Assembly: GCA_035513815.1 (NCBI GenBank)
Contig: DATKBU010000104.1
Location: 1-52,610 of the forward strand
Reading direction: 5' to 3'
Length of the DNA: 52,610 bases
Source: Egibacteraceae bacterium
GTDB taxonomy: Bacteria; Actinomycetota; Nitriliruptoria; Euzebyales; Egibacteraceae
Shown here piece by piece: positions 41,685 to 52,610 of the stretch. Every line of letters starts with the position of its first letter. Position 1 is the first letter of the stretch. The notes under the pieces are model-generated. The model worked only from the letters and a program-made list of their open reading frames with translations, made no database searches and was not told the DNA's origin. Both the position numbers and the translations under genes were made by a program.

Positions 41685-41722
41685 GGGTGCATTCGACTTC
41701 ACCGGTGGAGCAGAATGCACCC
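41685..41722. promoter_or_regulatory. 38-bp near-perfect palindrome upstream of hemL
   Basis: GGGTGCATTC-GACTT-CACC|GGTG-GAGCA-GAATGCACCC. The outer 10-bp arms are perfect and the centre is CACCGGTG. It ends 22 nt before the hemL ATG. Confidence 0.45.
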
Positions 41723-41743
41723 GCTCGGCGGGAAGCCGCTGAC

Positions 41744-43018
41744 ATGGCGAGCTCAGAAGAGCTGTTCAGTCGTGCCCGGCGCGTCATCCCGGGTGGGGTG
41801 AACTCGCCGGTTCGCGCGTTCCGCGGCGTCGGCGGCGTCCCGCGCTTCATCGCCGGCGCCGAAGGGGCGATGCTGACCGATGTCGACGGTCGCTCCTACA
41901 TCGACTACGTCATGAGCTGGGGGCCGCTGATCCTCGGCCACCGGCATCCCGCGGTCACCGAGGCGGCCGCCGAGGCGCTGCGGCGCGGCTCCAGCTACGG
42001 GGCGCCGACCGCCGCGGAGGTTGAGCTGGCTGAAGTCATCGCGGCCGCCGTGCCGGGCGTGGAGATGGTGCGCTGCGTCTCCAGCGGGACCGAGGCGACC
42101 ATGACCGCGATCCGGCTGGCCCGCGCGGCCACCGGCCGCGACCGCATCGTCAAGTTCGCGGGGCACTATCACGGCCACGCGGACGCGCTGCTGGCCGCCG
42201 CCGGCAGCGGCGTGGCGACGCTGGGCCTGCCCGATTCTCCGGGCGTCACGGCGCGGGGCGCGGCGGACACGATCGTGGCCGAGTGGAATGACCCGGAGGG
42301 GATCAGCGCGGTCTTCGAGGACGCAGGGGGGCAGATCGCCGCCGTGATCTGCGAGCCGGTCGCCGCGAACATGGGCGTCGTGCCCGCCCAGGACGGATTC
42401 CTGGAGCTGCTGCGCGATCTCACCGCCCGCCACGGCGCGCTGCTCATCGCCGACGAGGTCCTGACCGGCTTCCGCGTGGCCTTGGCGGGCGCGGCCGCCC
42501 GTCGCGGGATCGCACCCGACCTCATCACGCTGGGGAAGGTCGTCGGCGCGGGGTTTCCGCTCGCGGCGCTCGGCGGACCGGCTGACCTGATGCGCCGGCT
42601 GGCGCCTGAGGGCGCGGTGTATCAGGCGGGGACCCTCAGCGGGAACCCTGTCGCCGTGGCTGCCGGGCTCGCGCAGCTGCGCCTGCTGGGCGACGACGTC
42701 TACGCGCGGCTTGAGGAACTGGCCGATCGTCTCATCGCAGGGTTCGGGAAGGCGTTCGCGCGCGCCGGAGTGCCGGCCGTGATCCAGCGGGAGGCGAGCC
42801 TGTTCAGCGTGTTCTTCGCCGAGGATCCGGTGCGCGGCTATCCCGACGCCAAGCAAGCCGATCATGAGCGCTACGCGCAGTTCTTCCACGGGATGCTGGA
42901 GCGCGGCGTGTATCTGCCGCCATCCGGCTACGAGGCCCTGTTCCTCAGCGCAGCCCACTCCGCCGAGCACATCGACGCCACCATCGCCGCCGCCGAGGAG
43001 GTCGCGGCCGGCTTGTAG
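41744..43018 (+). CDS. hemL: Glutamate-1-semialdehyde 2,1-aminomutase
   Basis: LFSRARRVIPGGVNSPVRAF, SGTEATMTAIRLAR, ADEVLTGFR, and PLP Lys in TLGKVVGAG. Confidence 0.92.
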   Translation: MASSEELFSRARRVIPGGVNSPVRAFRGVGGVPRFIAGAEGAMLTDVDGRSYIDYVMSWGPLILGHRHPAVTEAAAEALRRGSSYGAPTAAEVELAEVIAAAVPGVEMVRCVSSGTEATMTAIRLARAATGRDRIVKFAGHYHGHADALLAAAGSGVATLGLPDSPGVTARGAADTIVAEWNDPEGISAVFEDAGGQIAAVICEPVAANMGVVPAQDGFLELLRDLTARHGALLIADEVLTGFRVALAGAAARRGIAPDLITLGKVVGAGFPLAALGGPADLMRRLAPEGAVYQAGTLSGNPVAVAAGLAQLRLLGDDVYARLEELADRLIAGFGKAFARAGVPAVIQREASLFSVFFAEDPVRGYPDAKQADHERYAQFFHGMLERGVYLPPSGYEALFLSAAHSAEHIDATIAAAEEVAAGL

Positions 43019-43097: not shown

Positions 43098-43763
43098 GTG
43101 AGCGGGTCCGATCGAGGGGCTGACGCCCCGACTGCGGAGGCGGAGAGCGAGGGCGCGTCCGCTGCCGCCTGGCGGACGGCCGCCATCGCAGGCGCCGCAG
43201 CGATCGCTCTGCTGGTCGCGGTCGTGCTGCTGGTCGCCGAGCGGAGCGCCGACGGGATTCCGGCGGGCGCCGAGCCCCTCCCCGGGGCAACGCCGGGGCT
43301 GCTCGGCGAGCGCCCCCGGCCCGACGACGCCCGCCCGCTGCCGCCCGTGGTCCTCGACGGGTTCGCCGACGGCGACCAGGTCGATGTGCTGGCCTACCGT
43401 GGTCGCCCTCTGGTGGTGAACTTCTGGGCCAGCTGGTGCGGTCCCTGCGTGGAGGAGATGCCCGACTTCGAGCAGGTGGGCACAGAGCTGGCGGGCCAGG
43501 TGGCGATGCTCGGCGTCAATGTGCGGGATGCGCCCGGGCAGGCGCAGCGCTTCGCCGAGGAGGCGGGCGTCACCTATGACCTCGCGGTCGACGCCGACCG
43601 CGAGCTTGAGATCGGCGTCGGGGTGTTCGGGCTGCCGACCACCCTGTTCGTGGACGCCGACGGCACCATCGTCCTGCACCACACCGGTCCGCTGAACGCC
43701 GAGCAGCTGCGCGGCCTCATCGCCGAGCGGCTCGGAGCCAGCGCCGCCGATCGGCCCGCCTAG
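43098..43763 (+). CDS. TlpA/ResA-family thiol:disulfide oxidoreductase (membrane-anchored)
   Basis: GTG start and an N-terminal TM helix (AIAGAAAIALLVAVVLLV). VVNFWASWCGPCVEEMP. Confidence 0.8.
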   Translation: MSGSDRGADAPTAEAESEGASAAAWRTAAIAGAAAIALLVAVVLLVAERSADGIPAGAEPLPGATPGLLGERPRPDDARPLPPVVLDGFADGDQVDVLAYRGRPLVVNFWASWCGPCVEEMPDFEQVGTELAGQVAMLGVNVRDAPGQAQRFAEEAGVTYDLAVDADRELEIGVGVFGLPTTLFVDADGTIVLHHTGPLNAEQLRGLIAERLGASAADRPA

Positions 43764-43909: not shown

Positions 43910-44368
43910 GTGGGCGAGTTCTTCCGGGCGATACCCGAGGTCTTCGCCGCGCTCTGGCGCTTCATGGACACGTGGCGCGGCCTGGGCGTGACGGTCGGCA
44001 GCCTGGTCCTCATCGTGGTCTTCACCGGCGGAGCGGTCCGCCTGCGGACCTCCTACGGCTGGGTGTCGGCCATTCTGGGCGCCATGGCCGCGACGCTCGT
44101 CGCCTGGTGGGTGTTCGGGATCATCCCGTCCGCTTGGATCTACTTCGCCGATGCCGAGCGGGATCTCCTCGGAGGGCGGGTCATACCAAACGCGCTCGAC
44201 CCGGTCGCTGCGAACTTCTATCAGGTGTTCCGCGACAGCGTCGCCATGGCGGAGATCACCGTCGCGATGGGCGCGTCCATCGTGGCGGCGCTGTGGATCC
44301 AGAAGCGCTATTCGCGGTCGCTCGCGGACGGCGAGGAGAAGGGCCCGGCTACGGGCGGCTACAAGTAG
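43910..44368 (+). CDS. Hypothetical membrane protein heading the Rieske/cyt b gene cluster
   Basis: 152 aa. The GTG start follows GAGGAAAGGG. 3-4 TM helices. I recognise no family. Confidence 0.5.
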   Translation: MGEFFRAIPEVFAALWRFMDTWRGLGVTVGSLVLIVVFTGGAVRLRTSYGWVSAILGAMAATLVAWWVFGIIPSAWIYFADAERDLLGGRVIPNALDPVAANFYQVFRDSVAMAEITVAMGASIVAALWIQKRYSRSLADGEEKGPATGGYK

Positions 44369-44419
44369 CGTCGCGGGGGCCGCAGCAGCTGCCCCGCCGA
44401 GACCACGTCAGGACGCAGG

Positions 44420-44767
44420 ATGGGCAAGACGGACCAGGGACTGCACCCGGAGATCTTCGATGACTACCGGGTCGAGACCGTTGATCCGAGCTGGCTCCAG
44501 GAGCGCGTCAAGCCAAAGCGGCACATCGGCCTGACCCCAGAGCTGTGCATCTTGTGCCGGGCTTGCGAGGACGTCTGCCCGTGGGAGTGCATCTTCATGC
44601 TGGCGCCGAACATCATCGCCGACGCCGAGACGACGCAGGTCATGACGCTGGCGAATACGGCTGAAGCGATCTTCGTGATCGACGACAACGAATGCACGCG
44701 CTGCGCGATCTGCGTCGAGCGCTGCCCGTCCGACGCCCTGTGGCTCGGCCGGGTCGACAGCAACTAA
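44420..44767 (+). CDS. 2x[4Fe-4S] ferredoxin-domain protein
   Basis: CILCRACEDVCP and CTRCAICVERCP are two CxxCxxCxxxCP motifs in 115 aa. Confidence 0.78.
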   Translation: MGKTDQGLHPEIFDDYRVETVDPSWLQERVKPKRHIGLTPELCILCRACEDVCPWECIFMLAPNIIADAETTQVMTLANTAEAIFVIDDNECTRCAICVERCPSDALWLGRVDSN

Positions 44768-44781
44768 CCGAAGGGTTGTAG

Positions 44782-45564
44782 GTGGCCAGGCTCCCGTCTC
44801 TCCGCCCTCCGGCGCCCGACGAGCTCAAAAAGCGGGTCCAGGACAACGTCATCTGGAAGTCGATCTTCCGGCCGGGTTCGATCTATCGGAAGGGCTATCG
44901 CGACACGTCCCGTGATCGGGCGCTGGCCGCGATGAACAATGTGCTGTACCACCTGCACCCGGTGAAGGTGAAGCGCCACGGCCTCAAGCTGACCTACACC
45001 TACTGCCTGGGAGGGCTGAGCTTCTTTCTGTTCATCCTCCTGACCGTCACGGGCATCTTCCTGATGTTCTTCTACCGGCCTGCCGCGGGCGCCGGCGCCG
45101 AGCACGCCTACCTGGACATGGTCCGCCTCCGGGACACGGTCGTGTTCGGCGATTTCGTGAGGAACATGCATCGCTGGGCCGCCCACTTGATGGTGTTCAC
45201 CGTGTTCCTGCACATGGCGCGCGTCTTCTATCACGGCGCCTACAAGCCCCCGCGCGAGTTCAACTGGGTTGTCGGCGTGATCCTGCTGTTGCTGACGCTC
45301 CTGCTCGCTTTCAGCGGGTATCTGCTCCCATGGGATCAGCTGGCGCTGTGGGCCTTCACCGTCGGCACTGCGATGGCCGGGTTCACGCCCGTGTTCGGGC
45401 GAGAGGTCTCGTTCGTGCTGCTCGGGGGCGTGGAGATCGGCCCCGAGACGCTGCTGCGCTGGTACGTGCTGCATGTGCTCGCCCTGCCGTTCATCCTCAC
45501 CATCTTCCTTGCTGTCCACTTCTGGAGGATTCGCAAGGACGGCGGCATCTCCGGCCCGCTGTAG
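44782..45564 (+). CDS. Cytochrome b6-type protein (N-terminal half of cytochrome b)
   Basis: YCLGG (the position of the haem ci Cys). Helix B is HRWAAHLMVFTVFLH (His-13-His). Helix D is HVLALPFILTIFLAVH (His-14-His, b6/Firmicutes-type spacing). The ORF ends after helix D. Confidence 0.85.
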   Translation: MARLPSLRPPAPDELKKRVQDNVIWKSIFRPGSIYRKGYRDTSRDRALAAMNNVLYHLHPVKVKRHGLKLTYTYCLGGLSFFLFILLTVTGIFLMFFYRPAAGAGAEHAYLDMVRLRDTVVFGDFVRNMHRWAAHLMVFTVFLHMARVFYHGAYKPPREFNWVVGVILLLLTLLLAFSGYLLPWDQLALWAFTVGTAMAGFTPVFGREVSFVLLGGVEIGPETLLRWYVLHVLALPFILTIFLAVHFWRIRKDGGISGPL

Positions 45565-45596
45565 CCGCGGCAGCAGGCTGATATAAGGAGCGCGTC

Positions 45597-46442
45597 ATGG
45601 CCGAAGAAGTTGAGATGGACCAGAAGGTCTACGACGAGCTGATCGCTGCGGGCAAGAGCGAGCGGATCGCACGGGCGAAGGCGAAGGCGGCGGCGGTTCG
45701 GGCCAAGAAGGCCGCAGCAGGCGAGACGCTCGGGCCGCGCGAGGCGTCAGCCGCAGAGGACCGCCCCACCGCGGCCGCCGAGGGCGGCGGCGAGACCGTC
45801 GCAGGCGGGGGGGTCGCCACCAAGGAGCGCACTGGCGGCGGCGCGCTGACACCGGAGGAGCGGCAGGCCAGGGTGGCCGCGGCGCTCAAGGAGCGCGGCA
45901 ACGGCGAGGCCGCCGGATCCGCGGAGACGAAGCTCGCCGGTCAGGCGCACACGCACCGCCTGCTCGCGATGGTTCCTCCCACGGGGATCCAGCAGATCCG
46001 CGGCAAGCAGGAGGACAAGGTCTACACCTGGCCGCACCTCCTCGGCGCTGAGCTCATCGCCCTGCTGAGCCTGATGGCCTTTCTCACGCTGTTCTCGGCC
46101 GTGGTGCCCGCGCCACTGCAGCCACTCGCGAACCCGAACGTCACGCCCAACCCGTCCAAGGCCCCTTGGTACTTCCTGGGACTCCAGGAGCTCCTGCGCT
46201 TCTTCCACCCGATGGTGGCCGGCGTGATCATCCCCGGCGTCGTCGGCCTGCTCGGCCTCATGGCGATCCCGTACGTGGACAAGAATCCGTCAGTTCGCCC
46301 GGAGAACCGCAAGACGGCATACACGCTTTTCACCTTCTTCATGCTCGGATCCGGGATCCTGACGCTGATCGGTTCGCTGTTCCGCGGACCCGGCCAGAAC
46401 TGGGTGTGGCCGTGGGTCGACGGCATCTGGTTCACCTTGTAG
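45597..46442 (+). CDS. Cytochrome b C-terminal half / subunit IV-like protein with ~130-aa Ala/Lys/Glu-rich N-extension
   Basis: AAGGAG SD. VYTWPHLL..., then PNPSKAPWYFLGLQELL (counterpart of the PEWY loop), then two more TM helices. Confidence 0.78.
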   Translation: MAEEVEMDQKVYDELIAAGKSERIARAKAKAAAVRAKKAAAGETLGPREASAAEDRPTAAAEGGGETVAGGGVATKERTGGGALTPEERQARVAAALKERGNGEAAGSAETKLAGQAHTHRLLAMVPPTGIQQIRGKQEDKVYTWPHLLGAELIALLSLMAFLTLFSAVVPAPLQPLANPNVTPNPSKAPWYFLGLQELLRFFHPMVAGVIIPGVVGLLGLMAIPYVDKNPSVRPENRKTAYTLFTFFMLGSGILTLIGSLFRGPGQNWVWPWVDGIWFTL

Positions 46443-46454
46443 ACAGGCCTGCGA

Positions 46455-47276
46455 GTGATATCGATGACAACGATGATTCTCGGATTCGCGGCAGTTGCCG
46501 CGGCGCTGACGGCGGTCGCGTGGTGGATCCGCCGGGAGAATCTGGCGGTCTACCCCGTCGGGCGCAGCCCGCGTGAGCTGCGCCCCCTGCCAGCAGGCTG
46601 CGACCTCGGCGCGCAGCTGATGGCCGCTGCCGACGTGGGGAAGGATTCGTCGGGCTCCGCTGGGTCTGCAGGCGGCGCTGCCGCGTCTGAGCCTGCCCCG
46701 GCGAAGCCCACGAAGCAGCGGCGCAAGCCCTTCAGCCCAGACCGACGCGCGTTTCTCAGGAACAGCTGGCTGTTCGGGTGGCTTGGAACGCTGGCCGGCT
46801 TTGGGGGAGCGTCGATCGCGTTCCTGTGGCCGGACGCCGCGGGCGGCTTCGGCGCCCGGATACGAGTCGGCCCGCCAGAGGACGTGCTCAGCGCCATCCG
46901 CGAGGCCCAGGCGCCGTTCGCGTTCCCGGCGGGGCGCATGTACATCGTCGAGTACGATCCCGCGCTCGACCCCGACGGCCAGTACGAGGAGATCACCGGC
47001 GGCAGCAACCTCATGGCGCTGTATCAGAAGTGCGTGCACCTTGGCTGCAAGGTTCCCTGGTGCCAGACCTCGCAGTGGTTCGAGTGCCCGTGCCACGGCT
47101 CGCGCTACAACCGCTGGGGAGAGTGGAAGGACGGGCCTGCGCCGCGCGGGCTGGACCGGTTCCCGATCACGGTCGAGCAAGGCGAGGTCTTCGTCAACAC
47201 CGGCGATCTGCGGACCGGCCCGTCGCGCCAGGCGGTGGTGCTAGACCAGGAGCGGGAAGGCCCCAGCTGCCTGTAG
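46455..47276 (+). CDS. Rieske [2Fe-2S] subunit
   Basis: CVHLGC ... CPCHGSRY boxes. An internal twin-arginine motif (SPDRRAFLRNSW) follows a first TM helix, as in actinobacterial QcrA. Confidence 0.85.
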   Translation: MISMTTMILGFAAVAAALTAVAWWIRRENLAVYPVGRSPRELRPLPAGCDLGAQLMAAADVGKDSSGSAGSAGGAAASEPAPAKPTKQRRKPFSPDRRAFLRNSWLFGWLGTLAGFGGASIAFLWPDAAGGFGARIRVGPPEDVLSAIREAQAPFAFPAGRMYIVEYDPALDPDGQYEEITGGSNLMALYQKCVHLGCKVPWCQTSQWFECPCHGSRYNRWGEWKDGPAPRGLDRFPITVEQGEVFVNTGDLRTGPSRQAVVLDQEREGPSCL

Positions 47277-47312
47277 GTCCCAGGCGCTTCGAGCAGGAGA
47301 AGGATCACACTA

Positions 47313-48386
47313 GTGACCACCACAGGAGCAGCGGTTCTCGTTCTCGCCCTCGCGGCGGTGGCGGTCATCGCCTATCTGATCGTCAGCGCGGGCCGCGGCC
47401 GGCGCCTGCGCGAAGACATCCCCCCGGGCATGCGCCCGGCTTACTCCGACGAGCAGCTCGAGCGCAGCGTGATCGAGCGCTACATGGCCTGGGGGCTGGT
47501 GCTGACGCTGTTCTTCGCCGTGTTCCTGCCGGTGTACGGAATCGCCGAGGCGCGCAGGATCCAGGGCCAGCGGGAGGGCATGTTCGTCGCCACCGTGGAG
47601 CGCGGTGCTGTGGCGTACGGGCAGTACTGCGCGCTGTGCCACGCGGCGGACCTCAGCGGAGGGTCCACCGCTTCTCCCTATCGCGCGGTCGACGATGGCG
47701 ACGCAACGGCGGACGAGGGCGAGGAAGCGGCCGGCGAAGACGCCGCGCCCGCTGCGCCGGATCAATGGCCGGTGCCGGCGCTGAACGACATCGTGGCCCG
47801 GTATGAGGGCAGCGACGTCATCACCGATGTCGAGGATCTTGTCCGGACGACGATCACGCGCGGCCGGCCGGGGACGCCGATGCCCACCTGGGGATCGCAG
47901 TTCGATGGCCCGCTGAATGACCAGGAGATCGAGGACATCGTCCGCTTCATCCTGGACAACCAGATTGATGAGGTGGCCGAGGCCACGTCGGCTTCGGACC
48001 TCTCCGGCCAGGAGCTGTTCATCCAGAACTGCGCCCAGTGCCATGGCGCCGAGCTCCAGGGCGAGGTTGGGCCGACTCTGGTGGGAGTCTTCGAGCGCCA
48101 CGGGCGCGACACCGTGCTGGGCATCGTGCGCAACGGGATCTACGTCGGGGCCGCGCCGATGATGCCGCCGTGGCAGAACGGCTACCTCTACCCCGAGGCG
48201 CGCTACACCGATGAGGCGCTGGAGCGGATCGTGGACTATCTCGCTGAGCAGCAGCCCGCGACGATCCCCGAGCGGCTGCGCGGATATCAGGGGCCTGGAA
48301 TGACGCTTGAGGAGCGGCAGCCGCAAGCGGACAGCACCGAGCCGGCGCAGGAGGCGGCCGCCGCAGGCCGCCGCGCGGCCGGTTGA
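47313..48386 (+). CDS. Membrane-anchored dihaem c-type cytochrome
   Basis: Two CxxCH motifs (CALCHAA, CAQCHGA), two N-terminal TM helices, and a GCAGGAGAAGGA SD. Confidence 0.8.
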   Translation: MTTTGAAVLVLALAAVAVIAYLIVSAGRGRRLREDIPPGMRPAYSDEQLERSVIERYMAWGLVLTLFFAVFLPVYGIAEARRIQGQREGMFVATVERGAVAYGQYCALCHAADLSGGSTASPYRAVDDGDATADEGEEAAGEDAAPAAPDQWPVPALNDIVARYEGSDVITDVEDLVRTTITRGRPGTPMPTWGSQFDGPLNDQEIEDIVRFILDNQIDEVAEATSASDLSGQELFIQNCAQCHGAELQGEVGPTLVGVFERHGRDTVLGIVRNGIYVGAAPMMPPWQNGYLYPEARYTDEALERIVDYLAEQQPATIPERLRGYQGPGMTLEERQPQADSTEPAQEAAAAGRRAAG

Positions 48387-48403
48387 CACGAGGAGCTTGG
48401 GTC

Positions 48404-49243
48404 ATGTCGCTGGATCTGCTGGGACTGGTGCTACTCGCTGTTGAGGAGGCCAGCCACGAATGGGTCCCCCCGTGGGACTGGCGCGCGCAGGTCGCGCTGC
48501 CGGCAGGGCTGCTGATCTTCTTCGGCAGCGTTTTCCTGCTGCTGCGATCCAACCTGGGCGCTCGACGCGCCTACCTGGTGGAGGCGACGTCGTTCTTCGG
48601 ATTCATGATCATCCTGGCGCTGTTCTGGACCTTCGGGGCGCCGGGCACGCCGATCGCGACCGGTCCTATCACCTTGCCCGGCCAGCCGCTGGACGCCTAC
48701 CAGCCGACGTGGACGCCGTTCGCGGGCGACAGCGTCATTGCCGAGGACGAGCGGTTCGTCACCGCGAAAACGTTCCCGGAGGGCTGGACCGAGGTGCCCG
48801 ACGCGTTCGCCGCCCAAGCCGACACCGGAGTCCAGGAGATCCAGTCGTTCTTCGGCGAGCAGGAGGCCGGCAGCCGCATCCCGGCCACCTGGGTTCCCGT
48901 CGGGGACACCGTGCGGTACCGCGAGGCGACCAACGGGTTCCCGATGATCTCGGCGGAGTTCAAGGAGTCCTATCAGCCCAACGCCGACGGCAGCCTTCCC
49001 GAAGGCGTATCCGAGACCCAGATCGGCCAGCCGATCCCCGACGGCGCCACGTTCCGTGCCTTCGCTTTCTTCGACGCCGGCAACATCCAGTTCCCCAGCA
49101 TCGTGATGCTGGCGGTCATGACCGTCGCCTTCCTGATCCACCTGGCGCTGCTGGCCCTCGACGAGCGCCGCGAGCAGCGTGAGCTGGCGGAAGATGCGGC
49201 GCACGTCGCCGAGGAGCGCGAGCGCGTTTCCGCCGAGGCCTAG
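48404..49243 (+). CDS. Hypothetical membrane protein (3 N-terminal TM, ~170-aa extracytoplasmic domain, C-terminal TM)
   Basis: The ATG at 48404 follows GAGGAG (the track start at 48383 is TTG). It immediately follows the cytochrome c gene. I recognise no family. Confidence 0.5.
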   Translation: MSLDLLGLVLLAVEEASHEWVPPWDWRAQVALPAGLLIFFGSVFLLLRSNLGARRAYLVEATSFFGFMIILALFWTFGAPGTPIATGPITLPGQPLDAYQPTWTPFAGDSVIAEDERFVTAKTFPEGWTEVPDAFAAQADTGVQEIQSFFGEQEAGSRIPATWVPVGDTVRYREATNGFPMISAEFKESYQPNADGSLPEGVSETQIGQPIPDGATFRAFAFFDAGNIQFPSIVMLAVMTVAFLIHLALLALDERREQRELAEDAAHVAEERERVSAEA

Positions 49244-49313
49244 CGTTCCTGCAGCGGCCTCGGGGCTGGGCTGGCCCCGCCTGCGGCGAACGCCCGCGCC
49301 GGCGGACCTTACT

Positions 49314-49844
49314 ATGGCTGGAATGCGCGAAGCCCTGGTCCTGCTCTTGCTCGCGCTCACGGCGTGTGTGAGCGACACCGCTGCGGCGGGCGTGGTGATC
49401 CCCCCGGCCGAGCGCGAGCCTGCCCCCGACGTGGCGGGCGTGACGCTTCAAGGTGACCAGCTGGCACTGGAGGATCTCGACGGCGTCGTCCTGGTCAACT
49501 TCTGGGCCTCATGGTGCGGTCCGTGCGTCGCCGAGGTGCCCCATCTGTCGGCGGTCGCCACCGAGTTCGCCGATGAAGGCGTGCACGTGCTCGGCGTGAA
49601 CATCAAAGACCAGCGCGCGAACGCTGTCGCGTTCGAGGCCGAGCACCGCGTGACCTACCCCTCGCTGCATGACGAGGCGGCGGTCGTCGCCGCGTCGTTC
49701 GGCGCCATCGGGCCGGCAGGGCTTCCCTCGACGATCATTCTCGACGCCGATCACAACGTGGCGGTCCGCCTGTTCGGCGCGGTCACCGCCCGCCAGCTGG
49801 TCCCGTACCTGCAGGATCTCCTGGCCGAGCCAGAGGCCGGCTAG
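49314..49844 (+). CDS. TlpA/ResA-family thiol:disulfide oxidoreductase, probable lipoprotein
   Basis: MAGMREALVLLLLALTAC (lipobox-like). LVNFWASWCGPCVAEVP. Paralogue of the gene at 43098-43763. Confidence 0.8.
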   Translation: MAGMREALVLLLLALTACVSDTAAAGVVIPPAEREPAPDVAGVTLQGDQLALEDLDGVVLVNFWASWCGPCVAEVPHLSAVATEFADEGVHVLGVNIKDQRANAVAFEAEHRVTYPSLHDEAAVVAASFGAIGPAGLPSTIILDADHNVAVRLFGAVTARQLVPYLQDLLAEPEAG

Positions 49845-50600
49845 ATGCAGGTCAGCGAGCTCATCACTAGCGCCAACCTCCTGGTCGCCGCTGCGGTGGC
49901 GTTCGCGGCCGGGCTGGTGTCGTTCGCGTCGCCCTGCGTCGTACCGCTGGTGCCCGGCTATCTGTCGTATATGACGGGCCTGTCCAGCGCAGAGCTCGCG
50001 GCCGGCGCTCGAACCGGTCGCGCGCGGGTCCTCGGCGGCGGCTTGCTGTTCACGCTCGGATTCGCGATCCCGATCACGCTGCTGGGCGTTGTGGGCGGGG
50101 CGCTGAACTTCATGCTGATGGACCGCGGCTGGCAGATCGCGATGGGCGCCGTCGTCGCGGTGATGGGGCTGGCCTTCACCGGACTGCTGCCGTTCGACAT
50201 CCTCGGGCGTGAGCGCCGGTTCAGCGACACGGCCATCGACCGGGGGGTCCTGGGCGCGCTTCCGCTCGGATTCATCTTCGGAGTCGGATGGACGCCATGC
50301 ATCGGCCCGGCGCTCGCTGCGATCCTCGCGCTGGCGGCCGGCGCGAGCGGCGGCCCGTCTCGCGGCGCGGCCCTGGCGTTCATCTACGCCCTGGGACTGG
50401 GCCTGCCGTTCATCGTGATGGGTCTGGCCTTTCACCGGGCAGAGCGCGCCTTCGGCTTTCTGCGGCGCAACGCGCGCGCGGTGCAGATCCTCGGCGGGCT
50501 GATGCTCACGGTGGTCGGGGTGCTGGTCGCGACGGGCTTCTGGACCCAGCTCATCCAGCGGCTGCAGCCGGTCATCGGCGGCTTTGAGACGGTGCTGTAA
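49845..50600 (+). CDS. ccdA: Cytochrome c biogenesis protein CcdA (DsbD-like transmembrane reductant transporter)
   Basis: [17 protein letters not shown] and WTPCIGP are the two conserved Cys-containing helices. Confidence 0.87.
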
Positions 50601-50606
50601 GCCGCG

Positions 50607-52229
50607 ATGACTGAGACGCTTCCGGATCACGGGCCCGGGCAGTCCCCGCCGCCCGCGTCCGCGCCGAGCGTGCTCCCTGATATCCCCGGGCCGATTCAGA
50701 CGCTGGGGATTCTGTGGCGCAAGCTGCGGCGCATGTCCACGGCCCTGGTGCTGCTGTTCGCCATGGCGGCCGCCGCGGTGGTGGCGACCTTCGTGCCTCA
50801 GGAGCCGGCGACCCCATCGACGGTCGCGCAATGGCGGGCGGGCGAGGCCGGCCCAGGCGCTGACATCGCCCGCGCCTTCGAAGCGCTCGGGCTGTTCGAC
50901 CTGTTCGGGTCGTGGTGGTTCATGACCCTCACCGCGCTGCTGTTCGTCAGCCTCACCGGCTGCCTCGTTCCGCGGTACGCGGCCTTCCTGCGAACCGTCC
51001 GGCGGCCGCCGGCGGCCGGGCGCAATCTCGAACGGCTCGCCAGCAGGCGGGCGCTGCGCACGGCGCTGCCGTCAGATCAGGCGCTGGCGGCCGCCGACCG
51101 CGTGCTGGCCCGGCGACACTTTCGCCGCCTGCGCACCGCGGATGGCCGGCAGCTGGCCGCCGAGCGGGGGCACTGGCGCGAGGGCGGCAGCCTGGCCTTC
51201 CACACCGCGTTCTACCTGCTGCTGACCGGCGCGATCATCGGCCAGACGTTCGGCTTCAGGGGGCAGATCAACCTGCCGGAGGGCGCGGTGTTCGCCGACA
51301 CCCGGATCGCCTACGACCTGGCCGAGCCGGGGCGCGCGTTCGGGCTCGGGGACCACCGCGGATTCGTCGTGCGCCTGGACGACTTCGCCGCCGAGTGGCA
51401 CCCCAACGGCGTCCCGCGCGATTTCGTCTCCACGGTGACGGTGATCGAGGACGGGCAGGAGGTGCGCACCGCGGCCGTGCGCGTCAACCACCCGCTGACC
51501 CACGACGGCATGAAGCTGTACCAGGCGCGCTTCGGCATGGCGCCCAGAATCGTGGTGCGCGCGGGCGAGCGCGTTCTCTACGACGAGCCGGTCATGCTCG
51601 CCGAGACCACCAACGGCCTTTGGACCGGCGTGGCCAAGATCCTGGTGCCCAGCGGCGACGGGCCGCAGCTTGCGCTCGATCTGGTCTTGCTGCCCGACGT
51701 CAGCATCGACGAGCAGGGACGGCTGGTCACCGCCTCGCCCGAGGCGCGCGCCCCGCTGCTGCTCGGCGACCTGTGGACTGGGCAGCTGGGGCTGGAGCGA
51801 AACCTTCCGCCGCGCGAGTTCCTGCGAGCCGACGGCGAGGTCGCAGGGGAGGTCAGCCTGGCCGAGGGCGCTTCGCAGGAGCTGTTGAACGGGGCGCTGA
51901 CGGTCGAGTTCGCCGAGTTGCGCATGTGGTCGGGCTTCCAGGTTTCCCATGCCCCGGGTCGGATGCTGCTGCTGGCGTCCGCGATCCTGCTGCTGGGAGG
52001 GCTGATACCATCGCTGTACAGCTACCGGCGTCGCATCTGGGTGCAGGCGACCCCAGGCGCGTCCGGCGCTCAGACGCACATCGCGGTCGCCGGCGCGGCG
52101 CTGCAGCGCAAGCCCCGCTTCGCTGAGGAGTTCACGGCCATCGCCGACGAGTTGACCAAGGCCCTCGGGGATTCGCCGCCGGCGGCCAGCAGCGCCCGAG
52201 CGACGCGCCAGGACAGGGTGAAGGAGTAG
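50607..52229 (+). CDS. resB: Cytochrome c biogenesis protein ResB/Ccs1
   Basis: LRRMSTALVLL, FGSWWF, a large extracytoplasmic domain, VNHPL and YQ motifs, and a C-terminal TM, in the conserved position between ccdA and ccsA. Confidence 0.85.
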   Translation: MTETLPDHGPGQSPPPASAPSVLPDIPGPIQTLGILWRKLRRMSTALVLLFAMAAAAVVATFVPQEPATPSTVAQWRAGEAGPGADIARAFEALGLFDLFGSWWFMTLTALLFVSLTGCLVPRYAAFLRTVRRPPAAGRNLERLASRRALRTALPSDQALAAADRVLARRHFRRLRTADGRQLAAERGHWREGGSLAFHTAFYLLLTGAIIGQTFGFRGQINLPEGAVFADTRIAYDLAEPGRAFGLGDHRGFVVRLDDFAAEWHPNGVPRDFVSTVTVIEDGQEVRTAAVRVNHPLTHDGMKLYQARFGMAPRIVVRAGERVLYDEPVMLAETTNGLWTGVAKILVPSGDGPQLALDLVLLPDVSIDEQGRLVTASPEARAPLLLGDLWTGQLGLERNLPPREFLRADGEVAGEVSLAEGASQELLNGALTVEFAELRMWSGFQVSHAPGRMLLLASAILLLGGLIPSLYSYRRRIWVQATPGASGAQTHIAVAGAALQRKPRFAEEFTAIADELTKALGDSPPAASSARATRQDRVKE

Positions 52230-52234
52230 GCGCA

Positions 52235-52610
52235 TGGTCGATGAAGGGCTCGCTCAGCTGTCGATCCGGCTGTTCAACATCGCCTTCCTGACCTACATCG
52301 TGGCGATGGCTGCCTATTTCTTCCGCCTCGCTTTCACCCGGGTCTCGGTGTCCGGCGTGCTGACCAGCACCCGCACCGGCCAGCGTGTGGGATTGGCGGC
52401 CACCGGGGCGGCGATCGCTGGCGCGGCGATCCACAGCGGCAGCGTCATCAGCCGGTGGCTGGCAGTCCGACGGGTGCCCTGGGCGAATATGTACGAGTAC
52501 TCCTCGCTGATGGCGCTGACCGCGGTCGTGGTCGGCCTGGTGGTGGTGCAGCGCCGGTTCGGCTACGGGCATCTGATGGGCTTCGTGCTGGCGCTCGCGG
52601 TGCTGTCGAT
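52235..52610 (+). CDS. ccsA: Cytochrome c biogenesis protein CcsA/ResC (5' partial, runs off window)
   Basis: My own translation from the ATG at 52235: MVDEGLAQLSIRLFNIAFLTYIVAMAAYFF...RRVPWANMYEYSSLMAL... This frame stays open to the window end, and the ORF is not in the track because it has no stop. Confidence 0.8.

Follow-up and report, generated by a model that had tools for sequence, protein, structure and literature searches.

A two-cluster ferredoxin encoded within a b6-type Rieske/cytochrome b operon of Actinomycetota: a candidate redox module on the n side

INTRODUCTION

Rieske/cytochrome b complexes are textbook three-site machines, with a Qo site, a Qi site and a high-potential acceptor; it is an open question whether a low-potential cytoplasmic carrier can also plug into their n side, as considered for electron transfer from ferredoxin to haem cn in cytochrome b6f and for the generation of NAD(P)H in anammox bacteria. 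The question is raised by a stretch of DNA of 52,610 nucleotides (nt) from an Egibacteraceae bacterium (contig DATKBU010000104.1 of assembly GCA_035513815.1, a metagenome-assembled genome (MAG) that is 86% complete); the whole stretch is referred to here as the window. Seven co-oriented open reading frames (ORFs; 43910-49243, + strand) encode a b6-type Rieske/cytochrome b complex together with a small 2x[4Fe-4S] ferredoxin (Fd) and two transmembrane (TM) proteins, g1 and g7. What is a ferredoxin doing in such an operon?

From its sequence and that of its relatives, the window operon is best read as the minimal two-cluster form of a Rieske/cytochrome b redox module on the n side. We lean towards Fd being a docked, electron-transferring part of the complex that serves as an optional n-side port; that it binds, where it binds, that it transfers electrons and in which direction are all things we infer. 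Two observations are new: the recurrent deletion of the Fd gene from an otherwise intact operon, and the presence, at the same position in paralogous operons, of a gene for a flavoprotein with a homologous dicluster domain.

THE OPERON AND ITS CORE SUBUNITS

The operon consists of the following genes (lengths in amino acids, aa):

43910-44368, + strand: g1, 152 aa, 3-TM protein without a Pfam or NCBIfam match
44420-44767, + strand: Fd, 115 aa, 2x[4Fe-4S] ferredoxin; Pfam Fer4 and dicluster families, NCBIfam NuoI-like
44782-45564, + strand: cytochrome b6, 260 aa, four TM helices; Pfam Cytochrome_B, NCBIfam ExtP
45597-46442, + strand: subunit IV (SUIV), 281 aa, three TM helices; Pfam Cytochrom_B_C (1e-9), NCBIfam ExtQ (6e-14)
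46455-47276, + strand: Rieske [2Fe-2S] protein, 273 aa; Pfam Rieske (7e-9), NCBIfam PetC-type (1e-17)
47313-48386, + strand: dihaem cytochrome c, 357 aa; two Pfam Cytochrome_CBB3/Cytochrom_C domains
48383-49243, + strand: g7, 286 aa, membrane protein, no family assigned

The order and identities of the seven genes as first annotated are correct, as judged by the ORFs, by Pfam and NCBIfam and by motifs. The two databases recognise five of the seven products (a Fer4 dicluster, Cytochrome_B, Cytochrom_B_C, Rieske and two cytochrome c domains); g1 and g7 match a family in neither. The intergenic gaps are, from 5′ to 3′, 51, 14, 32, 12 and 36 nt, and the cytochrome c and g7 genes overlap by 4 nt; the range of 11-51 nt given before was essentially right, the measured one being 12-51 nt plus the overlap of the last pair. 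A sequence scan found neither a sigma-70-like promoter nor a convincing terminator within the operon, such a scan being uninformative in this genome of 70% GC.

Cytochrome b6 matches Pfam Cytochrome_B with an E value of 2e-42, and its best match in the PDB is the cyanobacterial b6 (1vf5_A, E 5e-42). In the alignment to the latter the equivalents of His86, His100, His187 and His202 are kept with the b6-type spacing in helix D, and Cys75, within the motif YCLGG (residues 74-78), aligns to Cys35, the haem-ci cysteine of the cyanobacterial protein. Judged by these residues the protein is a four-helix cytochrome b with ligands for haems bL and bH, and the YCLGG cysteine is the predicted site of covalent attachment of haem ci; the split into b6 and SUIV proposed at the outset is borne out, haem-ci cysteine included. 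SUIV has the Qo motif APWY at residue 189 and a low-complexity cytoplasmic N-terminal extension of about 140 aa. The Rieske protein begins with a first TM helix, a Tat-like DRRAFL motif at 96 and a second TM helix, after which follows the cluster domain with CVHLGC at 193 and CPCH at 211. With a four-His b6, a separate SUIV with an xxWY motif and a Rieske protein with CxHxGC and CxCH, the operon is of the Rieske/cytochrome b (b6) type.

The S-Y signature of the Rieske protein (CPCHGS.Y) is found in 72 of 73 family members; this signature is taken to predict a potential of >260 mV (PMC4122944), by which rule the Rieske protein of the operon is predicted to be of the high-potential type, also >260 mV. 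Its electron acceptor is probably the cytochrome c of the operon, a membrane-anchored class I dihaem protein with CxxCH at 106 and 240. Because all cofactor ligands, the Qo motif and a dihaem cytochrome c acceptor are present, the core would be a b6-type (“APWY-clade”) menaquinol:cytochrome c oxidoreductase that delivers electrons to terminal oxidases by way of an ordinary Q cycle.

THE FERREDOXIN AND ITS CANDIDATE PARTNERS ON THE n SIDE

Fd contains two cluster motifs of the form CxxCxxCxxxCP (C43ILCRACEDVCP and C92TRCAICVERCP) with a long insert between them, preceded by a family-specific N-terminal extension of 35 aa in which Y16, V21, D22, W25, L26, H35 and L38 are invariant; an invariant extension and non-ligand aromatics of this kind are unusual in a free carrier. 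The protein is cytoplasmic, with a pI of 4.4 and a net charge of -10, to which the +11 of b6 residues 1-70 is complementary. The basic N-terminal extension of b6 (about 45 aa, on the n side) is conserved to at least 90% across all tiers of relatives. A search of the PDB found no solved structure in which a related Fd is bound to a bc-type complex.

The b6 N-terminal extension (window 44782-44991) also contains three near-invariant histidines, H57, H59 and H66. AlphaFold3 (AF3) models of anammox complexes propose an extra haem b on the n side, at the centre of the dimer (PMC12954380), and by analogy the histidine trio might bind a haem of this kind.

In nearly all lineages Fd is directly preceded by g1, and in loci L085 and L087 the two genes overlap (ATGA). 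The C-terminal cytoplasmic tail of g1 ends in GGYK in the window. In distant tiers a small multi-TM protein encoded upstream of Fd ends in an analogous tail (KGYMxGK or YGRPL). From these features g1 is proposed to be the docking or anchor partner of Fd.

CONSERVATION AND DISTRIBUTION

The closest loci are found in MAGs of Egibacteraceae, Euzebyales and Nitriliruptorales, which places the window in the class Nitriliruptoria. The seven genes and their flanks occur in the same order in about 80 Nitriliruptoria genomes, with identities to the window proteins of 73-91% for Fd, 80-91% for b6, 30-57% for g1 and 28-50% for g7; in all of these loci the intergenic gaps are short. All 17 of 17 representatives of the lower-scoring tiers (Fd identity 33-57%, b6 67-80%) keep the order Fd-b6-SUIV-Rieske-cytochrome c, and the same module is present on three more metagenomic or MAG contigs; such conservation across relatives is far beyond chance. 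The linkage of Fd and of both TM genes to the b6 and Rieske genes, on which the first interpretation of the locus depended, thus holds across the phylum.

A profile of the Fd family matched 157 of 401 evenly sampled Actinomycetota genomes, corresponding to 113 of 249 genera. In this sample each carrier genome has a single member of the family, always in the context of the b6 operon, and Fd is located immediately 5′ of b6 in every locus inspected. The b6 scores are bimodal; 156 of the 157 Fd-positive genomes carry a window-type b6, and about 97% of the genomes with a window-type b6 also have Fd, only five genomes being truly Fd-less. Carriers include the cultured, non-pathogenic aerobe Salsipaludibacter albus (strain AS10, locus L035) and MAGs labelled as the cultured genera Nitriliruptor, Egicoccus and Euzebya. 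One record, L085 (GCA_016208485.1), is labelled “Acidobacteria bacterium” at NCBI; its match coordinates and score are identical to those of G055 in the phylum sample, so the two are one genome, and the label is probably a mis-assignment. As this lone record equals a genome of the phylum sample, all carriers seen are Actinomycetota.

Some records have to be read with care. Apparent Fd-b6, cytochrome c-g7 and g1-Fd fusions (L021, L057; P0132, P0140, P0158, P0176 and others) arise from frameshifts or out-of-frame readings in error-prone assemblies and are not real; the long-read MAG records L021, L057, L061 and L064 contain internal stops and frameshifts, which lead to false fusions in ORF calls and in public protein sets. 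P0135, an Fd-family member of 277 aa, is extended at its C terminus by a domain of about 160 aa that bears no evident relation to the operon and may reflect either a true fusion or a chimeric call.

PARALOGOUS OPERONS WITH A FLAVOPROTEIN

Three genomes (G160, G299 and G387) contain a second, more divergent b6 operon, with a b6 that is 46-50% identical, and a fourth (G066) has a related one (53%). In these four operons (loci L147-L150), which have an APWY subunit IV and are devoid of g1 and g7, a protein of about 620 aa is encoded directly upstream of b6. It consists of Fer4_20, Pyr_redox_2 (binding flavin adenine dinucleotide (FAD) and NAD(P), with GxGxxG) and a C-terminal 2x[4Fe-4S] dicluster domain. 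With the latter, Fd of the window aligns without gaps over both motifs and the insert (36% identity, E 6e-15, in L150); its identity to the other flavoprotein dicluster domains is 41-43% (tblastn). In GltD- and DPD-type proteins the clusters of Fer4_20 adjoin the flavin, so that the C-terminal dicluster would form the membrane-proximal end of an iron–sulfur (FeS) wire, and Fd is best read, from the alignment and the gene position, as the free-standing counterpart of this membrane-proximal module.

A comparable arrangement has been studied in anammox bacteria, where the NAD(P) oxidoreductase subunit of Kuenenia co-migrates with its Rieske/cytochrome b complex and where, in AF3 models, the four clusters of this subunit mark out a route between the cytochrome b part and the FAD (PMC12954380). 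An extra point of electron entry or exit on the cytoplasmic side had been suggested when the locus was first described; by analogy this idea is strengthened, because the sister operons place a homologous dicluster flavoprotein at the position that Fd has in the window.

In one flavoprotein-type operon (L148 10883-13051, in G299) the electron acceptor combines, in a single protein, a cytochrome c domain and four sulfocyanin-like (SoxE/cupredoxin) repeats in tandem.

LOSS OF THE FERREDOXIN

Within the family to which the window belongs, four genomes (three genera) show the arrangement hemL-resA-g1-b6-SUIV-Rieske-cytochrome c-g7-resA-ccdA-resB without Fd, and a profile search found no member of the Fd family anywhere in these four genomes. 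In a tree of concatenated operon proteins they form two clades, each sister to Fd-bearing genomes (support 1.0 and 0.999). A fifth case, G325, belongs to another family; there, g1 is followed by b6 after a gap of 47 nt. Two Fd-less clades and G325 together make at least three independent clean deletions of Fd. Among the Fd-less genomes is G164, complete at 4.64 Mb. The Fd-less b6 retains the haem-ci cysteine and nearly all invariant positions. As the Fd-less operons are intact and constrained, the core complex works without Fd, which is therefore an accessory component; the initial annotation had taken Fd for a dedicated subunit, and while its conserved place in the operon agrees with this, it is not obligatory.

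Traces of the loss were sought in the remaining subunits by counting deviations from conserved columns; these columns were taken from outgroup lineages alone, so that the test would not be circular. Fd-less genomes deviate more often than their Fd-bearing relatives in b6 (4.25 vs 1.43, p=0.002) and in g1 (2.75 vs 0.52, p=0.0015), with a weaker excess in the remaining subunits. Twelve of the 17 positions changed only in Fd-less genomes map to predicted n-side (cytoplasmic) segments; such changes are located in the N-terminal extension of b6 (G38, Y39, L55, L58), in SUIV ahead of the first TM helix (R121, L123, I131) and in the tail of g1 (L138, E142, G149, G150, Y151). The g1 tail GGY[K/R], present in 82 of 83 Fd-bearing operons, is decayed in two of the four Fd-less genomes (Fisher p=0.005, on non-independent samples). 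Together, deviations and tail decay are suggestive, and only suggestive, of a docking site for Fd on the n side.

A number of points weigh against a docked Fd. Its match to the flavoprotein dicluster (about 50 bits) is barely above that to other dicluster proteins (about 47 bits); because the score by itself barely discriminates, the equivalence of the two rests on the position of both beside a homologous b6. Genomes with only the Fd-type operon yielded, when searched for a separate partner flavoprotein, only a distant GltD-like protein (29-36% identity). The p-side subunits also deviate slightly more in Fd-less genomes, the signal being weak and derived from two or three loss events, and rate covariation (with the species proxy removed) gave no preference of Fd for n-side partners. 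The clean deletions, at least three in number, left the other genes of the operon largely unharmed; Fd resembles a free carrier in being small and acidic and in lacking a TM segment; its AlphaFold2 (AF2) model from a 65-sequence alignment is poor (pLDDT 56); and no genuine Fd-b6 or g1-Fd fusion was found among 1.84 billion representatives.

These last four points are those that speak for Fd being a free soluble ferredoxin that is merely co-transcribed, that is, a diffusible carrier serving the complex or an unrelated pathway and not docked to anything. We nevertheless regard this as rather unlikely: the position of Fd 5′ of b6 is fixed across phylum-level divergence, its family occurs nowhere else in these genomes, its N-terminal extension is invariant, the equivalent module of the sister operons is covalently part of a complex-bound flavoprotein, and g1 is coupled to Fd and its tail decays after Fd loss.

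A SECOND COMPLEX III

The window operon encodes a second Rieske/cytochrome b complex of the organism, because a canonical qcrC-qcrA-qcrB cluster, for which a check had been proposed, is present on contig C79 (locus L084 2696-5752, minus strand). Its QcrB is unsplit (453 aa; 422 bits with the NCBIfam QcrB model) and its QcrA has the Rieske signature S-F (CPCHQSTF), corresponding to about 260 mV. Complete and near-complete genomes of Nitriliruptoria have both types of complex. Other actinobacterial families include nine complete or near-complete genomes whose only cytochrome b is the window-type b6, so there the core must work as the cell's complex III. For many deep-branching Actinomycetota this means that the “textbook” qcrCAB is not the only complex III, and some do not use qcrCAB at all.

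PROPOSED FUNCTION AND DIRECTION OF ELECTRON FLOW

A docked Fd would sit on the basic n-side face made up of the b6 N-terminal extension, the SUIV segment before the first TM helix and the tail of g1, and would wire the region of haems bH/ci and the Qi site to cytoplasmic low-potential redox partners; it would be an accessory port on a core that functions without it, with g7 on the periplasmic side, beside cytochrome c.

Were electrons to enter, reduced ferredoxin from PFOR/KOR would pass them to the clusters of Fd, from there to haem ci/bH and on to menaquinone, a flow that should be downhill from typical [4Fe-4S] clusters. The genome encodes a PFOR-type enzyme of about 1,238 aa (contig C38, 215-904) and a KorA-type 2-oxoacid:ferredoxin oxidoreductase of about 628 aa (contig C101, 8480-9130), and thus should produce a pool of reduced ferredoxin; judged by sequence, the two enzymes are its likely sources in an aerobe. 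The PFOR/KOR content of Fd-bearing and Fd-less sister genomes showed no difference. If Fd is docked, input is the slightly favoured direction, though itself short of probable, output is somewhat less so, and what is left falls to a regulatory or bidirectional role.

In the opposite direction, a docked Fd would be an electron exit: upon bifurcation at Qo one electron would go to the Rieske protein and cytochrome c, the other via bL, bH and ci to the [4Fe-4S] clusters and on to a cytoplasmic low-potential acceptor, and the complex would then operate a pared-down version of the mechanism by which anammox complexes have been proposed to generate NAD(P)H. A Rieske protein with the S-Y signature in what is presumed to be a menaquinone organism fits such an exit, as do the positional equivalence of Fd to the anammox-type dicluster domain and the potentials of anammox Rieske proteins, which were measured at >+300 mV and are in line with bifurcation (PMC12954380); the APWY motif, moreover, has been linked to non-standard operation (PMC4122944). 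Against it, the complex is the sole complex III in many genomes, and the conserved haem-ci cysteine and b6 core lead one to expect a normal Q cycle at the Qi site. Reduction of typical [4Fe-4S] clusters from bH/ci would also be strongly uphill unless the haem potentials are unusually low, and with QcrA of the same genome at about 260 mV the contrast between the two Rieske proteins is small. Both the exit itself and its kinship to the anammox mechanism therefore appear unlikely to us.

Returning to Fd as a port of either direction, the most far-reaching proposal would be that of a ferredoxin-coupled complex III, in which Fd is a bound n-side subunit, the complex is the minimal two-cluster form of anammox-type complexes, found in about 40% of the sampled Actinomycetota genomes, and the bH/ci-Qi region exchanges electrons directly with the cytoplasmic ferredoxin pool. 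It is put forward tentatively, as a possible but somewhat doubtful extension of the docked Fd. If true, it would be a natural, genetically hard-wired case of the link between ferredoxin and haem ci that is debated for cyclic electron flow through b6f. The operon is widespread and present in cultured hosts, and the Fd-less sisters and the flavoprotein-bearing paralogues are built-in natural controls.

THE MEMBRANE PROTEIN g7

The AF2 model of g7 is confident (pLDDT 91, pTM 0.77) and consists of a TM hairpin, an acidic alpha/beta domain and a long C-terminal TM helix; from the charge distribution of the model the alpha/beta domain is predicted to lie on the periplasmic side. A Foldseek search gave no match for this fold in the PDB (best E 0.09, TM 0.16 or lower), and no meaningful Pfam family was found in the 51 members scanned. 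In 38 of 57 loci the g7 gene overlaps that for cytochrome c, by 4 nt in the window, which indicates that g7 is translationally coupled to cytochrome c; because of this coupling g7 is probably a supernumerary subunit on the p side.

GENOMIC SETTING

The genes flanking the operon are the following:

41687..43018, + strand: hemL (glutamate-1-semialdehyde aminomutase), upstream; syntenic in about 70 loci, with Aminotran_3 in related contigs
43098..43763, + strand: ResA/TlpA-like membrane thioredoxin, copy 1, upstream; Pfam AhpC-TSA/Redoxin (7e-19), NCBIfam ResA (7.8e-21)
49179..49844, + strand: ResA/TlpA-like thioredoxin, copy 2, downstream; Pfam AhpC-TSA (2e-23), NCBIfam ResA (1e-22); its real start is probably later than 49179
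49845..52608, + strand: ccdA, resB and the start of ccsA/resC, downstream; system II cytochrome c maturation, syntenic in relatives

The operon is inserted between two paralogous ResA/TlpA genes within a hemL-resA-ccdA-resB-ccsA cluster that is otherwise conserved, and Nitriliruptoria retain this setting even where Fd is missing; the ccdA-resB-ccsA flank of related contigs matches Pfam DsbD_TM, ResB and Cytochrom_C_asm. Elsewhere the Fd-type operon adjoins genes for terminal oxidases (FixO and COX1 in L087, 1696-3683; COX2-COX1-COX3-COX4 in L089, 1-4086), and in both loci divergently oriented ResB/CcsA genes lie alongside. In L089 the cytochrome c of the operon also bears a cupredoxin domain.

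The setting within a cluster for haem synthesis and cytochrome c maturation, together with the dispensability of Fd, could be taken to mean that Fd is an assembly or maturation factor, for instance for attachment of haem ci on the n side or for cofactor insertion, or else a redox sensor; outside cyanobacteria and plastids, no machinery for the attachment of haem ci is known. This is quite improbable, as the b6 of Fd-less operons is constrained and has retained its haem-ci cysteine, so that haem ci needs no Fd, as the operon of other lineages is located beside oxidase genes and outside the maturation cluster, and as the homologous module of the sister operons ends an FeS wire from FAD.

COMPARISON WITH KNOWN SYSTEMS

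Comparison with the literature and the PDB revealed no characterised complex that matches the operon subunit for subunit, and a full-text literature search found no published description of the small-ferredoxin form. With cytochrome b6f of cyanobacteria and chloroplasts the operon shares the YCLGG cysteine, the four histidines with b6-type spacing and the split SUIV. Unlike b6f, it lacks cytochrome f, its gaps of at most 51 nt are too short for PetG/L/M/N-type genes, it has APWY in place of PEWY as the Qo motif, its quinone is presumably menaquinone, and a ferredoxin is encoded in the operon itself; that ferredoxin donates electrons to haem cn on the n side is a long-standing proposal for b6f. 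Bacillota QcrABC and heliobacterial PetABCD likewise have a split cytochrome b and haem ci, oxidize menaquinol and use c-type acceptors; the heliobacterial complex has a dihaem cytochrome c, and in Heliobacterium the CxGG context is also YCLGG. In contrast to the window, these systems have PDWY or PEWY and no genes for a ferredoxin, g1 or g7.

The actinobacterial bcc complex (QcrCAB) comes from the same phylum, likewise includes a dihaem cytochrome c and has additional TM helices at the N terminus of its Rieske protein, but its QcrB is unsplit and without haem ci. In the initial annotation the Rieske protein was called actinobacterial in style and the cytochrome c QcrC-like. The Tat-like motif after the first TM helix and the two CxxCH motifs are indeed there; the likeness is one of architecture only, as the window proteins reach 28.5 bits with the NCBIfam model QcrA_actin (cut-off 275) and 43.9 bits with QcrC_actin (200), with 106 bits for QcrB (500), and the cluster domain of the Rieske protein scores higher, at 63.7 bits, against b6f PetC. 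The best NCBIfam matches of b6 and SUIV are ExtP and ExtQ of the Geobacter cluster extHIJKLMNOPQS (ExtO/ExtP/ExtQ), although b6 does not reach the ExtP equivalog threshold (289.3 vs 290 bits); no ferredoxin is encoded in the Ext cluster, whose multihaem cytochromes, porin and rhodanese-like protein have no counterpart in the window operon. It was considered as a precedent for a ferredoxin within such an operon and ruled out, ExtM and ExtN being multihaem cytochromes.

A further group is the “APWY clade” of Kao & Hunte (2014), split cytochromes b with CxGG that have a few Actinobacteria among their hosts, that the authors describe as uncharacterised in vitro and in vivo, and for which they do not mention a small ferredoxin partner (PMC4122944). 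The window shares its APWY Qo motif on a split b with CxGG and differs in having YCLGG instead of the usual WCMGG; support for a possible place of its b6 within the clade comes from the near-threshold score with the ExtP model. The clade probably overlaps with subfamily G of Dibrova et al. (2013, 2017), whose cytochromes b are adjoined by large NAD(P)/FeS proteins (Dibrova et al., 2017).

This leads back to the anammox type, as in Kuenenia stuttgartiensis (Kuste4569-4574 and Kustd1480-1485). The large FAD/NAD(P) FeS subunit that characterizes these operons is present in L147-L150 and absent from the window, where a dicluster module of 115 aa with an N-terminal extension of its own stands without Fer4_20 or an FAD/NAD(P) domain. 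Unlike the flavoprotein type, the window has g1 and g7, and its acceptor is a dihaem class I cytochrome c, as opposed to the hexa- and octahaem cytochromes of anammox bacteria. The APWY motif is common to the window operon and the actinobacterial flavoprotein-type loci, and with the anammox type the window shares the split into b6 and SUIV, the haem-ci motif, a Rieske protein of the high-potential type and, directly upstream of b6, a gene for a cytoplasmic FeS module that ends in an alignable 2x[4Fe-4S] domain.

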